Source: an uncultured Acidimicrobiales bacterium (GTDB taxonomy: Bacteria; Actinomycetota; Acidimicrobiia; Acidimicrobiales; SHLQ01). From it: DNA of 64,000 nucleotides. The translations under genes were made by a program, and so were the position numbers. The DNA is taken from contig CALHYX010000042.1 of the NCBI GenBank assembly GCA_938041035.1, positions 2,731 through 66,730 on the forward strand. The letters are read 5' to 3'. This document shows positions 15,681 to 26,740 of the stretch, piece after piece (the first letter of the stretch is position 1; the number at the start of each line of letters is the position of its first letter). The notes below the pieces were generated by a model. The model was not told where the DNA came from. It was given only the letters and a program-made list of their open reading frames with translations, and did no database searches.

Positions 15681-17195
15681 ATGGTCTGGCTCATCGCCCT
15701 CGGCGTCATCGTCGCCCTCCTGGTCCTGCTCGCGATCTACGACGTCACCCAGAAGAAGCGAGCGATCCTCCGCAACTTCCCGATCATTGGTCACCTTCGC
15801 TATCTGCTCGAAGGCCTCGGCCCCGAGCTGCGGCAATACATCGTCACCGACAACGACGAAGAGCGACCGTTCAGCCGTGACCAGCGGCGGGTGGTCTACG
15901 CGTCGGCGAAGATGGAGAACACCTACTTCGGCTTCGGCACCGACAACGCCATCGACACCAACCCCGACTACGTGGTGATCCGGCATTCGGCCTTCCCCCA
16001 CGCGGGGAACCACGACGACAAGCATCGACTCCCGGTGGCCAAGCTGCTCGGCGAGTGGCGCGACCGGCCCCAGACCTTCCGGCCCGAGTCGATCGTGAAC
16101 GTGTCCGCCATGAGCTATGGCTCCCTGAGCGCGCCGGCCATCGAGGCCATCAACCGCGGAGCGGCCATCGCCGGGTTCCTGCACAACACCGGCGAGGGCG
16201 GCATCTCCAGCCACCACCTGCACGGCGGCGATCTCCTGTTCCAGTTCGGTACCGGCTATTTCGGGTGCCGCGACGCCGAGGGGAATTTCGATCTCGACAA
16301 CCTGGTCGCCACGGTGGCCGACAAGCCGGTGCGAGCCATCGAGGTCAAGCTGAGCCAGGGGGCGAAGCCCGGCCTCGGCGGCGTGCTCCCCGCCGAGAAG
16401 GTCACCCCCGAGATCGCCCAGGTCCGCGGGGTGCCGGTCGGCCAGTCGGTTCTCAGCCCGAACAGTCACACTGCGTTTGACGATGTCGCCAGCCTGGTCG
16501 ACTTCGTCGAGGAGATCGCGGTGGCCACCGGGCTCCCGGTCGGCATCAAGTCAGCGGTCGGGCAGATGGGGTTCTGGAACGAGCTGGCCGACCACATGGC
16601 CGCCACGAAGCGAGGCCCGGATTTCATCGCTGTCGACGGCGGCGAGGGCGGCACCGGCGCCGCGCCGCTGGTGTTCTCCGACCATGTGGCGCTGCCGTTC
16701 CGTATCGCCATGTCGTCGGTGTACAAGACGTTCGCCGAACGAGCGCTACACGAGAAGCTGATGTTCGTCGGCTCCGGCAAGCTCGGCTTCGGCCAGGAAG
16801 CGCTGGTCGCTATGGCCCTCGGCGCCGACATGGTGGCGGTCGCGCGCGAGGCCATGTTGGCCATCGGGTGCATCCAGGCCCAGGACTGCCACACCGGGCA
16901 CTGCCCCACCGGCGTCGCCACCCACGGCCGATGGCTCACCCGCGGCCTCGACCCAACGTCGAAGGCCGACCGCATGGCCAACTACATCATGAACCTGCGC
17001 TACGACCTGTTGAAGTTGTCGTGGGCGTGCGGGGTCTCGCATCCGAGTCTGGTGCCGGCCGACACCGTCGCCATGCTCGACACGCCCAGCACCTCGGTAC
17101 CGGTGATCGACAAGTTCGGCCACGACGCGGCCTGGACCGAGGTCGACGACGACCAACGTCGCACCATCGACGAACTCATGGCGTCATTCAGCTGA
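15681..17195 (+). CDS. FMN-binding glutamate synthase family protein
   Basis: SAMSYGSLS, NTGEGG, EVKLSQGAKPG, DGGEGGTGAAP and CIQAQDCHTGHCPTGVAT motifs; N-terminal TM. Confidence 0.93.
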   Translation: MVWLIALGVIVALLVLLAIYDVTQKKRAILRNFPIIGHLRYLLEGLGPELRQYIVTDNDEERPFSRDQRRVVYASAKMENTYFGFGTDNAIDTNPDYVVIRHSAFPHAGNHDDKHRLPVAKLLGEWRDRPQTFRPESIVNVSAMSYGSLSAPAIEAINRGAAIAGFLHNTGEGGISSHHLHGGDLLFQFGTGYFGCRDAEGNFDLDNLVATVADKPVRAIEVKLSQGAKPGLGGVLPAEKVTPEIAQVRGVPVGQSVLSPNSHTAFDDVASLVDFVEEIAVATGLPVGIKSAVGQMGFWNELADHMAATKRGPDFIAVDGGEGGTGAAPLVFSDHVALPFRIAMSSVYKTFAERALHEKLMFVGSGKLGFGQEALVAMALGADMVAVAREAMLAIGCIQAQDCHTGHCPTGVATHGRWLTRGLDPTSKADRMANYIMNLRYDLLKLSWACGVSHPSLVPADTVAMLDTPSTSVPVIDKFGHDAAWTEVDDDQRRTIDELMASFS

Positions 17196-17266: not shown

Positions 17267-17977
17267 TTAGCGGCGGTTGAGAATCCGCAGCACGTACCAG
17301 AACATGGTCATCACCGAGGAGAACAACGACACCGCGGCGGCGACGTAGGCGTCTCCGGGGTAGCGGCGCACGATGTTCTGCGTTTGGTAGAGGATGGAGA
17401 CACCCATCAGGGCGACCATCGCCACGCTGAACCAGAGGCCCAGGTTGAAGTTGAAGATGACCGCACCGACGATGAGACCGATGGCCACGACGCCACCCCA
17501 CATCAGGATCGGGCGCATCCACGACAGGTCGCTGCGGGTGAAGTAGCCAACCGCCGAGAGTGCGGCGAAGCCGATCGCGGTGATGACCGCGGCGGCCCAG
17601 ACGTTGCCCGAACCCTGGAAGTTGAACGTGTAGTACAGCATCGGGGCGAACAGCAACGAGTACAGCGCGGCCATGCCGAACAACCCGGCGTACTGTTTGC
17701 CCGGGTTGAAGATGTCGGCCGCGGCCTGCGAGGCGATCCAACTGCCGACCATGAAGCCACCGAGGATGATCAGCCAACGGCCGCCCCCTCCGCCTTCGCC
17801 GTAGACGAAGTCAAAGAATCGCTCGGCGATGCCGCTCATGAAGAGCAGGGTCTCAAAGGCGATGAACGCGCCGATGGCCATGGCCAGGTGGCCGTAGACC
17901 TTGGAGATGAACTCCGCCCGATCGGTGTCGGGAAGGTTGATGACGGGCTGGGTCCGAAGAGCATTTGCTTCGGCCAT
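17267..17977 (-). CDS. Bax inhibitor-1/YccA family membrane protein
   Basis: FISKVYGHLA, SDLSWM, ILYQTQNI and YVAAAVSLF motifs; 7 TM. Start ATG 17977. Confidence 0.88.
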   Translation of the reverse strand: MAEANALRTQPVINLPDTDRAEFISKVYGHLAMAIGAFIAFETLLFMSGIAERFFDFVYGEGGGGGRWLIILGGFMVGSWIASQAAADIFNPGKQYAGLFGMAALYSLLFAPMLYYTFNFQGSGNVWAAAVITAIGFAALSAVGYFTRSDLSWMRPILMWGGVVAIGLIVGAVIFNFNLGLWFSVAMVALMGVSILYQTQNIVRRYPGDAYVAAAVSLFSSVMTMFWYVLRILNRR

Positions 17978-18135
17978 GGGTGTCCTTTCTGGTGCGCAGG
18001 CGGCTGCGCATATCCACGAGGTCCATGATACCGCTACCTCGTCACCCCGATACAGCGCACAACCGATCCTCTCTATTCCCACTGTTCAAATGGGCAAAGG
18101 TGGGTTTGGGGTTCGGGCCGTGGCAGGATCGGGCC

Positions 18136-18771
18136 ATGAGCTCCGACAGTCCCGTCCGGTTCACCGTCTGGTCGGACTACCTCTGACCGTGGTGCTACGT
18201 CGGGGCCGTGCGCCTCGATCAACTCAAAGCCTCGGTTGGCGAATCGGTCGAGATCACCTGGAAGTCGTTTCTGCTCCGCCCCCAACCAGAGCCCCGCACG
18301 ATGGAGGCGTTCACGAAGTACACGCGCAGTTGGGAACGTCCCGATGCTGCCGTCGACTCGGTGACCTTCAACCAGTGGAGCGGCGACCACGAGCCCCCGA
18401 GCCACTCGCTACCCACCTCGGTCGCGGGCAAGGTGGCCGAGACCTTCGGCGCCGAGCCATTTCATGCCTTCCACTTCGCGCTGATGAAGGCCTATTTCAC
18501 CGACAACCGCACGGTCTCGGACCGCACCGTCATCCTCGACGTCGCCGCCGAGTCGGGCATCGACCCCGACGAGTTCGCCCGCCGCTTCGACGAACAGACC
18601 CAGAGCTTCACCGAGTCGGTCATCGAGGACCACAACGCCGCCGTCGGCAACGGCCTGGGCGGTGTGCCGGCCGTGCTGGTCAACGACGAGTTCCCGTTCA
18701 CCGGCGCCCAGGAACTCGACTTCTACGAGCGCATCGTCACCACCCTGGCCGAACGCGGGGCGGCCGGTTAG
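18136..18771 (+). CDS. DsbA/FrnE-family oxidoreductase, probable selenoprotein (UPWC redox motif)
   Basis: ATG 18136 gives MSSDSPVRFTVWSDYL-[TGA 18184-18186]-PWCYVGAVRL, in frame with the 18208..18771 ORF (WKSFLL, GVPAV cis-Pro, GAQ). A hairpin follows the TGA. Confidence 0.85.
18199..18219 (+). promoter_or_regulatory. Candidate bacterial SECIS element
   Basis: Stem GTCGGGGC/GCCTCGAT (two G-U pairs) with loop CGTGC, G at loop position 2. The loop starts 20 nt after the in-frame UGA. Confidence 0.65.
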
Positions 18772-18874
18772 CCATCGCCGCCGACCGGCGACCGGGCCGA
18801 AAACGACCGAAGGCCCGGGGCGAACCCCGGACCTCGATCCAAACGCAGGCCTCGGCTGAACCGAGGGAGGCGTT

Positions 18875-19252
18875 CTACTTCAGTTCGACGGAACCGCCGG
18901 CGGCTTCGAGAGCCTCCTTGGCCTTTTCCGCATCTTCCTTCGACACCTTCTCGAGCACTGGGCCCGGGGCGCCTTCGACCAGTTCCTTGGCTTCTTTGAG
19001 GCCCAGGCTGGTGAGGCCACGGACCTCTTTGATGACCTGGATCTTCTTGTCGCCGGCACCGGTCAAGATGACGTCGAATTCGTCCTGCTCTTCAGCAGCG
19101 CCGGCGTCGCCGCCGGCCGGAGCCGCAGCGGCCACGGCGACCGGGGCGGCGGCCGTGACGTCAAAGCGCTCCTTGAAGTCGTCGAGGAGTTCCTTGAACT
19201 CCAGGACCGACATCTGCTCGATGGACTCGAGAATCTCGTCCTTGGTTGCCAT
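18875..19252 (-). CDS. rplL: 50S ribosomal protein L7/L12
   Basis: EFDVIL and [25 protein letters not shown] motifs. Confidence 0.98.
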
Positions 19253-19254
19253 GT

Positions 19255-20121
19255 TCAGCTTTCCTCCGTTTGGGAATCTTCACTTGCCGCGTCTGCAGCA
19301 GCGTCTTCGTCGGTTGCTTCTTCCGATGCGTCGTCATCGCCGGCGTCGGAGGCGGCGGCCTCGTCGGTCGACGCCTCGGCGTCTTCAGATCCTTCGGGCT
19401 CGGCGGGGGCTTCCTCGGCCGCAGCCTCTTCAGCTGCCGCTTCCTCGACGGGGGCATCCTCAGCCGGTGCTTCCTCGGCCGCAGCCTCTTCGGCCGGTGC
19501 TTCCTCGGCCGCAGCTTCCTCGGCCGGTGCTTCTTCAGCCGCAGCCTCCTCGGCGGCGGGCGCCGGGGCTTCGCCTTCGGGCAACACGCCCTTGTCGACC
19601 AGTTCCTGCATGGCGTAGCTGAACTCGCGCAGCTTGGAATCGAGCAGACCGGCGAAGTCCTGGAACATCGACTCCATCGCACCGGCGAGCTCGGCCATCA
19701 TCTGCTCGCGCGGCGGCAGGTCGGCGAGGGCGTTGATCTCTTCAACGCTGAGCGGAGCGTCGTCGAGCAGGCCGCCCTTGATCACCAGATGGTCGTTGCC
19801 CTTGGCGAAGTCTCGCAACGCCTTGGAGATGCTTGCGGCATCGCCGGTGCTGCCGTCGGGCCGCGTGCTCACGAAAGCGATCGCCGTCGGCCCGGTGAGC
19901 AGATCGTCGATCTCGAGACCGAGTTCGGCGGCGGCAAAGCGCACCATGGTGTTCTTGTAGACCTTGTACTCGCCGCCCGCCTCGCGCAGCGACTTCCGCA
20001 GTGCGGCCATCGCCGGCACGTCAAGGCCGCGGTACTCGGTCAACACCGCTGCGTTCGAGGCGGACAGCTTGTCCTTAACCTCGGCTACAGCGGCGACCTT
20101 CTCCGGCCGGGGGTTGCTCAT
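19255..20121 (-). CDS. rplJ: 50S ribosomal protein L10 with a long acidic C-terminal tail
   Basis: [24 protein letters not shown] and LADLPPRE motifs; about 100-aa Ala/Glu/Asp tail. Confidence 0.96.
19404..19552 (-). repeat. 15/30-bp tandem repeat encoding ([10 protein letters not shown])n in the rplJ tail
   Basis: ttcctcggccgcagc(c/t)t...cggccggtgc units at 19471, 19501 and 19531, with degenerate flanking copies. Confidence 0.85.
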
Positions 20122-23052: not shown

Positions 23053-23125
23053 CAGGGCAGGAGGGACTCGAACCCCCAACCGCCGGTTTTGGAGACCGGT
23101 GCTCTACCAATTGAGCCACTGCCCT
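23053..23125 (-). tRNA. tRNA-Trp (CCA)
   Basis: AGGGCAG/CTGCCCT acceptor stem, anticodon loop CT-CCA-AA, TTCGAG T-loop; upstream of secE. Confidence 0.96.
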
Positions 23126-24563: not shown

Positions 24564-24637
24564 TAGCGACGGAGAGACTTGAACTCTCGACCTCTCGATT
24601 ATGAGTCGAGCGCTCTTACCAGCTGAGCTACGTCGCC
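24564..24637 (-). tRNA. tRNA-Met (CAT), probably elongator
   Basis: GGCGACG/CGTCGCT acceptor, anticodon loop CT-CAT-AA; Thr-Met-rpmG order. Confidence 0.92.
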
Positions 24638-24663: not shown

Positions 24664-24736
24664 AGCTCCCTGACAGAATCGAACTGTCGACCTTTTCCTT
24701 ACCATGGAAACGCTCTACCGACTGAGCTAAGGGAGC
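24664..24736 (-). tRNA. tRNA-Thr (GGT)
   Basis: GCTCCC(T)/(A)GGGAGC acceptor, anticodon loop AT-GGT-AA, TTCGAT T-loop. Confidence 0.94.
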
Positions 24737-26658: not shown

Positions 26659-26740
26659 TGGGCCGGGGAGGATTTGAACCTCCGAAGGCAATGCCGACGG
26701 GTTTACAGCCCGTTCCCTTTGGCCACTCGGGCACCGACCC
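26659..26740 (-). tRNA. tRNA-Tyr (GTA)
   Basis: GGGTCGG/CCGGCCC acceptor, loop CT-GTA-AA, long variable arm. Confidence 0.95.

Follow-up and report, generated by a model that had tools for sequence, protein, structure and literature searches.

A predicted FrnE-like selenoprotein with a U-P-W-C active site, encoded across an in-frame UGA in a little-studied family of Acidimicrobiales

Does an in-frame TGA near the start of a thiol oxidoreductase gene end translation, or does it encode selenocysteine (Sec)? The question is raised by a locus in a stretch of 64,000 nucleotides (the window, here always the whole stretch) from contig CALHYX010000042.1 of an uncultured Acidimicrobiales bacterium (assembly GCA_938041035.1). 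On the plus strand, a frame that opens with ATG at 18136 meets a single TGA at codon 17 (18184..18186) and then runs through 194 sense codons to a TAG stop at 18769-18771. An initial annotation, made from the sequence alone, had read this frame as a hidden selenoprotein gene, and the start, the TGA, the PWCYVG-type continuation and the 194 further codons that it described are all present in the sequence. Our analysis arrives at the same answer. Positions 18136..18771 very probably form a complete coding sequence (CDS) of 211 codons including Sec17, for a cytoplasmic selenoprotein of the FrnE branch with the redox motif U17-P-W-C20, in which UGA-17, the codon for the first residue of that motif, is decoded by means of SelB and a selenocysteine insertion sequence (SECIS). 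The earlier observation is confirmed, and it is less surprising than it had been scored.

A reassignment of the genetic code can be set aside, since TGA ends 24 of the 41 stop-to-stop open reading frames (ORFs) in the window that have at least 250 codons and a third-position G+C content (GC3) above 0.75, with TAG ending 12 and TAA five. TGA is thus the ordinary and commonest stop in this DNA, as the initial annotation had also held. Translation table 11 splits the frame into one ORF that ends at the TGA (17965..18186) and a second of 187 amino acids (aa) that starts with GTG (18208..18771), and it is this split that leads gene callers to truncate the gene. The truncation that had been foreseen is found in the databases: the public call for the window's own product (P0002) has 156 aa, P0111 is a 182-aa public call named "DsbA family protein", and the PWC motif is missing from 49 of the 120 best database relatives, which are N-terminally truncated "DsbA family" entries. 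The table 11 ORF and the public calls agree with a reading in which the TGA is a real stop, the 16 codons upstream of it are non-coding and the product is a truncated DsbA-domain protein that starts from GTG 18208 or from Met56. We consider that reading most improbable. Such a product would lose the whole redox motif and the first strand of the fold, and the 16 codons before the TGA have a GC3 of 0.94 (0.88 over the CDS) and are conserved at the protein level, with T10, S13, D14 and L16 invariant or nearly so in an alignment of homologs (A2). A real stop would also leave unexplained the hairpin that follows the TGA and the co-occurrence of the TGA with selA, both of which are described below.

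The TGA lies exactly at the position of the attacking cysteine of the FrnE motif, as had been proposed. The peptide around it reads SDYL-U-PWC-Y, and columns 17 to 20 (U-P-W-C) are invariant in A2. Conservation of the codon was examined in two samples. The first comprised 61 related genomes, the window's own included, of which 50 contained a homolog. Every full-length match of at least 38% identity, together with two at 34%, carried one in-frame TGA, amounting to 38 matches in 33 genomes, while the matches without a TGA reached at most 37% identity over the full length. In all of the 30 loci that were extracted (38-67% identity) the TGA falls in the identical column, SD[YF/T][LI]-U-PWC. The second sample took one genome per GTDB species and gave 168 relatives, the best 80 of which (40-67% identity) were examined. 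TGA and cysteine codons share one column in this set: 75 loci have TGA, four have TGC and one (L047) was left unscored, being cut by a contig end such that it starts 9 nt before the codon; its apparent twin, L016, has TGA. By taxonomy, 78 of these 80 Sec-clade loci belong to Actinomycetota and 67 to Acidimicrobiia. One Sec-form locus of the otherwise actinobacterial clade, L105, sits in a record titled as an uncultured Gammaproteobacteria metagenome-assembled genome (MAG), a placement that could be due to a binning error or to horizontal transfer.

The same counts bear on a different explanation, in which a mistake in sequencing or assembly produced the TGA, or a CPWC gene recently became a pseudogene through a nonsense mutation. 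With a draft genome (4.89 Mb in 113 contigs, 94.6% complete), there would be room for an error of that kind. The explanation is scarcely credible, given that the same codon recurs in the same column in 75 of the 80 independent assemblies, that the frame stays intact for 194 codons beyond the TGA, and that a tree of 149 sequences needs only five changes of state.

That tree also gives the history of the Sec residue. Cysteine forms are common among the relatives, with full-length CPWC proteins making up 71 of the 120 best database relatives. These Cys-form orthologs come from metagenomes and Actinomycetota MAGs, where they are called "predicted DsbA family dithiol-disulfide isomerase"; they have the same architecture as the window protein, with about 41-59% identity over the full length, and are interspersed among the Sec forms in the tree. 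On the tree built by maximum likelihood from 74 Sec and 75 Cys forms, five Sec/Cys switches suffice, three of them forced by well-supported branches, whereas shuffling of the labels on the same tree required 49.8 switches on average and gave a number as low as five in none of 500 trials. With so few switches, the Sec state of this FrnE-like clade is ancient and stably inherited, with occasional conversions between Sec and Cys. The codon also follows the Sec pathway across the first sample. The gene selA is present in 32 of the 33 genomes with a TGA form, the exception being a genome that is 73% complete. The TGA form was not seen in any of the nine remaining genomes that lack a selA match, or in G049, where the only match to selA falls short of the cut-off.

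Immediately downstream of the UGA lies a hairpin of eight pairs (18199..18219, plus strand), with arms at 18199-18206 and 18212-18219 and the loop CGUGC at 18207-18211. It begins 12 nt after the UGA, and 20 nt separate the UGA from the first loop base; the 8-bp stem, the G in the apical loop and the spacing had been pointed out in the initial annotation and are read as such in the sequence. For bacterial SECIS elements, Zhang and Gladyshev are said to have given in 2005 numeric criteria on the range of the distance from UGA to loop and on a G in the first two loop positions. A conserved stem-loop just after the UGA, with a G in its apical loop, is what the locus contains.

The hairpin was assessed by comparison with homologs. 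In a gap-free alignment of 72 columns from 30 Sec-form loci (A1), the eight pairs are formed in 93.3% of the cells, a figure that drops to 30-45% once the partners are shifted by one to three columns. Pair 31-39 occurs as A-U in 16 loci, as G-C in seven and as G-U in five, and is mismatched in two, and pair 30-40 shows one change from G-C to C-G in A1 and further C-G variants in the wider set of 80 loci. The covariation score of 0.150 stands against a shuffled mean of 0.101 and was reached in none of 500 shuffles, and RNAalifold recovers seven of the eight pairs from the same alignment. Across the 75 Sec forms, all eight pairs are present in 33, seven in 38, six in three and five in one, so that 71 keep at least seven. 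The four Cys forms for which DNA was available, all with TGC in place of TGA, form four pairs in two cases and three in the other two, which is about the chance level. These four natural Cys revertants with decayed hairpins provide a clean internal control for the SECIS prediction.

The loop and the codons of the stem are constrained in a similar manner. The GU of the apical loop is nearly invariant among the Sec forms, and the loop codon encodes Leu and not Val in three of the four Cys forms, which argues that the constraint on this GU acts on the RNA and not on the protein. Synonymous codon entropy averages 0.83 in the stem versus 1.64 elsewhere (standard deviation 0.35, 49 comparable codons). 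Of 73 sequences, 72 encode Val22 by GTC, and 72 have CGT or CGC for Arg26, where Arg48 draws on six codons; Leu27 is restricted to CTC and CTT, where Leu46 and Leu47 use five codons each. The loop also varies in a coupled fashion, which we record as a separate observation. The majority form is CGUGC, and where the first base is G or A, the fourth is C or U (GGUCC, GGUUC, AGUUC), a coupling broken by only two sequences (loci L044-L123). Extension of the stem accounts for the G forms of the loop, not for the A forms.

Several points weigh against the assignment of this hairpin and of the selenoprotein as a whole. The single-sequence fold is unexceptional in this DNA of 66% G+C (z = -0.65, equalled by 43 of 200 shuffles); it was dropped as uninformative, and for this reason the significance of the hairpin was judged solely from the homologs. 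Its conservation is partly confounded with that of the peptide V-G-A/T-V-R-L-D, double changes are seen in only two of the eight pairs while two pairs are invariant, and the shuffle statistics overstate the significance because the sequences are related. Rfam gives no match at the locus, either at the gathering threshold or with E values up to 10, and no NCBIfam selenoprotein model scored above its cut-off, the best being NF041057 with 34.5 bits against 190. On balance, the comparison marks the downstream hairpin as a SECIS that is conserved and covarying in the Sec forms and degraded in the Cys forms. Alignment of homologs had been proposed as a check at the outset, and both the pairing of the TGA with Cys codons and the covariation of a conserved hairpin in the relatives came out in favor of recoding.

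The initial annotation had further supposed that this organism has the Sec machinery, and a search of the genome found it. A tRNA-Sec is present (65.3 bits with the Rfam model, cut-off 47; called SeC with anticodon tca by ARAGORN), as is selA, with a match of 322 bits. About 1.6 kb away from selA, on the same strand of the same contig, is the C-terminal winged-helix domain of SelB. The selD match (358 bits; contig C107:4695-5612, minus strand, locus L011) itself has an in-frame TGA, at SHGAG-U-GCK, and is a Sec-form SelD. The full Sec pathway (tRNA-Sec, selA, selB and selD) is encoded in this genome.

It may still be asked whether the UGA is read through without Sec, either by near-cognate insertion of Trp or Cys or with Cys carried on tRNA-Sec when selenium is scarce, so that the protein would often be free of selenium. 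Cys forms are viable and common, and some Sec/Cys switching has taken place in the family, both of which fit such a reading. Against it, a SECIS that is under purifying selection and is lost in the Cys forms, found alongside the whole Sec pathway, is what characterizes SelB-dependent insertion, and generic read-through would be costly where TGA is the main stop. We regard read-through without Sec as very unlikely. The conserved UGA, the SECIS and the Sec genes together argue for a real selenoprotein, and neither for an error nor for a pseudogene. The recoding signals, their conservation, the Sec machinery and the fold are seen directly in these analyses; that selenium is actually incorporated at UGA-17 we infer.

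The fold of the read-through product is that of the DsbA family. It matches the Pfam DSBA domain (PF01323) over residues 11-199 with an E value of 5e-24 (85.6 bits versus a cut-off of 25.6). The nearest solved relatives by family profile are FrnE of Deinococcus radiodurans (5cnw/5cp1, E 2.8e-25) and SCO1869 of Streptomyces coelicolor (3gl5, E 2e-22), and classical periplasmic DsbA proteins rank far below these two in the profile search. An AlphaFold model (pLDDT 94.1, pTM 0.90) has a strand at residues 7-13, Sec17 at the N-terminus of a helix spanning 18-37, a helical insertion, Pro178, a strand at 179-182 and a final helix, and its best Foldseek matches are again the FrnE and SCO1869 structures, with TM scores of 0.73-0.78. 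Pro178 (codon 18667..18669, plus strand) is invariant in A2 and precedes the strand 179-182 in the model, where it would occupy the cis-Pro position of the thioredoxin fold. Sequence and model thus both support the view, already taken in the initial annotation, that the protein is a DsbA/FrnE-like oxidoreductase.

As read from sequence and model, a signal peptide would not fit ahead of the first strand, which starts at residue 7, and of the motif, which starts at residue 13, so a cytoplasmic location is expected. It resembles in this respect FrnE (DR_0659; 5cnw, 5cp1, 5e59, 5xwh) and SCO1869, which likewise have a motif of the CP(W/F)C type in the corresponding position and no signal peptide. 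Identity to these two is only 22-24% in structural alignment, and the window protein differs from them in having Sec for the first Cys. The passages of PMC8945050 that deal with the FrnE subfamily (cd03024/COG2761) describe it as cytoplasmic CP(W/F)C oxidoreductases. The D. radiodurans protein (drFrnE) shows activity as a disulfide isomerase and in the reduction of insulin, and the corresponding mutant is sensitive to cadmium, diamide and oxidants; FrnE is presented there as a cytoplasmic disulfide reductase/isomerase that is important under cadmium, diamide and oxidative stress (PMC8945050). In drFrnE a C-terminal CxxxxC regenerates the active site, whereas this tail is absent from the window protein, which has no cysteine besides C20. 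The tail is also missing in some other FrnE homologs, such as those of S. roseofulvus and D. maricopensis (PMC8945050).

As to what the enzyme does, what reduces it and where transcription of the gene begins, we infer the following. UGA-17 would be decoded by Sec-tRNA(Sec) that SelB delivers, SelB being recruited by the 8-bp hairpin within the CDS according to the standard bacterial SECIS mechanism. The Sec residue would replace the N-terminal nucleophilic cysteine of a CPWC active site, attack substrate disulfides and, as the family suggests, form a selenenylsulfide with Cys20 (TGC codon 20, 18193..18195, plus strand), the predicted resolving cysteine, whose column is invariant in A2. Because the protein has no other cysteine, the Sec17-Cys20 bond would be re-reduced by an external reductant. 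Transcription of the stand-alone gene would probably be driven by a -10 box located 6 nt before the AUG and give a leaderless mRNA.

A -10 box that abuts the start codon is a hallmark of leaderless transcription, and leaderless transcripts are common in Actinobacteria. The window has a -10-like hexamer, CAGGAT, at 18124..18129 on the plus strand, 6 nt before the ATG, from which a leaderless mRNA had been suggested as a possibility in the initial annotation. The homologs support this suggestion. Of 75 homologs, 58 have a YANNNT hexamer that ends 6-8 nt ahead of the start, and 43 have a strict TANNNT there; in six windows at control offsets the counts were 1-7 for YANNNT and 0 for TANNNT. A Shine-Dalgarno-like 4-mer at a spacing of 4-11 nt is present in only 15 of 76 homologs. 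Translation from a Shine-Dalgarno sequence, for which the AGGA located 7 nt upstream of the ATG was considered, was rejected as outweighed by this low count and by the positionally fixed hexamer. The leaderless start has points against it as well. The AGGA of the window, which lies inside CAGGAT, could act as a Shine-Dalgarno sequence; CAGGAT departs from TANNNT at its first position; a generic sigma-70 scan found no -35/-10 pair at the locus; and the start codons of the homologs, which were picked by a simple rule blind to the hexamer, are not verified. Taking both sides together, we think it likely, on the sequence evidence, that the selenoprotein gene is expressed from a leaderless mRNA. 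If this is true, the family offers a natural test case for Sec insertion near the 5' end of an mRNA that has no ribosome binding site.

The setting of this selenoprotein in its genome and family was also examined. Matches to selA above the cut-off occur in 50 of the 61 sampled genomes of the order and in 35 of the 36 from the window's family; almost the whole of this Acidimicrobiales family has the Sec trait, which suggests that selenium is an important micronutrient for its redox defence. Five family searches of the window's genome yielded at least 15 Sec-encoding ORFs with a TGA exactly at the redox motif. They include SelD, the FrnE-like protein of the window and a second DsbA-fold protein on contig C44, and twelve further ORFs are located on contigs C98, C22, C26, C110, C23, C41, C34, C10, C20, C106 and C21. 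An FdhA-like protein (CNRT-U-H) and two CMD/AhpD-like proteins (CxxU) are found in the set, as are nine AhpC/TSA-domain proteins with TPG-U-T, in several cases W-U-PxC, in two U-GC and in one U-PF-U. The last, a Prx-like/AhpC-TSA ORF at C106:19590-19895, has two TGAs and the motif U-P-F-U (U-x-x-U).

Two genome-wide scans for TGA read-through were tried and rejected. The first found a Cys motif at 386 of 2556 TGA, 395 of 4190 TAG and 28 of 315 TAA sites, and was uninformative because the antisense frame with its high GC3 swamped it. The second, stricter scan (11 of 84 TGA, 3 of 99 TAG and 0 of 22 TAA sites) missed known cases with short N-terminal flanks, the window gene among them. As both genome-wide counts are unusable, the figure of 15 is a lower bound only. 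The initial annotation had called a selenoprotein of this kind unusual for Actinomycetota, whose known selenoproteome it took to be sparse. This part did not stand, given selA in 35 of 36 family genomes, at least 15 Sec ORFs in this one and, in the section cited, the statement of Zhang et al. (2006) that Actinobacteria are among three phyla rich in selenoprotein families (PMC1794560).

The second DsbA-fold selenoprotein gene has a U-P-W-C motif of its own. It lies on the plus strand of contig C44 (L126:1495-2109), with the TGA at L126:1525-1527 and an 8-bp hairpin about 17-35 nt past it. Its PF01323 match has 32.9 bits, and the 35% identity to the window protein over 49 residues makes it a distant paralog.

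Proteins of this kind have appeared in the selenoprotein literature for some time. A "DsbA-like protein" with a UxxC motif was reported in 2005 from the Sargasso Sea metagenome, with nine sequences assigned to COG2761 (PMC1088965), and to the extent of that account the earlier statement that UxxC DsbA-like selenoproteins are known from environmental bacteria is borne out. In 2006 the family was listed in four bacterial genomes, including Anaeromyxobacter dehalogenans, Desulfovibrio desulfuricans and Desulfotomaculum reducens (PMC1794560). The selenoprotein-family table of a 2016 survey gives the figures 41 and 45 for DsbA-like (PMC5029168), and the relevant entries of reviews from 2022 and 2026 read "DsbA-like protein (form 1), PF01323, UxxC" (PMC9312934, PMC13188914). 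The form 1 proteins share with the window protein the Pfam domain, the Sec at the same UxxC position and a SECIS right after the UGA. Their hosts, as named in the passages cited, are Deltaproteobacteria, Clostridia and, in the 2026 review, Asgard archaea, in contrast to the mainly Acidimicrobiia hosts found here. The likeness of form 1 to the window clade may reflect either orthology or an independent change from Cys to Sec in the same superfamily. A preprint on Actinomarina describes universal Sec machinery and about five predicted selenoproteins per genome; the word DsbA was not found in it. Among the papers retrieved on leaderless transcripts, SECIS elements and selenocysteine, none deals with a leaderless mRNA for a bacterial selenoprotein, judging by title and the opening of the abstract, and a large ancient Sec clade in Acidimicrobiia was not found in the literature searched, whose supplementary tables may contain it. 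The kind of protein has thus been known since 2005, and what this locus adds is a lineage-level member across a little-studied, Sec-heavy actinobacterial family.

Reading UGA-17 as Sec restores a complete enzyme in a place where the window's own product and 49 of 120 relatives are stored without their active site. The gene is one of many for Sec-dependent thiol oxidoreductases in an actinobacterial order that is widespread and for the most part uncultured. The observations can be joined in a broader proposal, which we advance tentatively and hold to be slightly short of an even chance. The family would be an overlooked Sec-rich actinobacterial lineage, with at least 15 Sec ORFs in this one genome, including the U-x-x-U Prx-like protein, and may be a main source of the thiol-oxidoreductase selenoproteins that ocean metagenomes have yielded over two decades. 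The mRNA for its FrnE-like protein would be leaderless and 70S-initiated, with SelB/SECIS recoding at codons 14-17, some 45-50 nt from an AUG at the 5' end. Most worth following up are the conserved leaderless architecture and the richness in selenoproteins of this Acidimicrobiales family.

The layout around the selenoprotein gene is monocistronic, with a divergent gene upstream and the convergent rplL downstream. The divergent neighbor encodes a Bax1-I/YccA-like membrane protein (17267-17977, minus strand), and an ORF still farther upstream (15681-17195, plus strand) carries a glutamate-synthase central domain; no functional link of either to the selenoprotein is evident. Between the selenoprotein gene and rplL, a G+C-rich hairpin at 18810..18835 scores as a terminator on the minus strand (11 pairs, with the T-run on that strand only), and this hairpin may end the plus-strand transcript too. 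The genes rplL and rplJ follow at 18875-20121 on the minus strand, with rplL at 18875-19252. The L10 (rplJ) ORF at 19255-20121 encodes 288 aa, of which the Pfam L10 domain covers residues 5-105 only, and its C-terminal part is unusually long. Four tRNA genes are found on the minus strand at 23053-23125, 24564-24637, 24664-24736 and 26659-26740. The first of these has a sub-threshold match to the tRNA-Sec model but is an ordinary tRNA.

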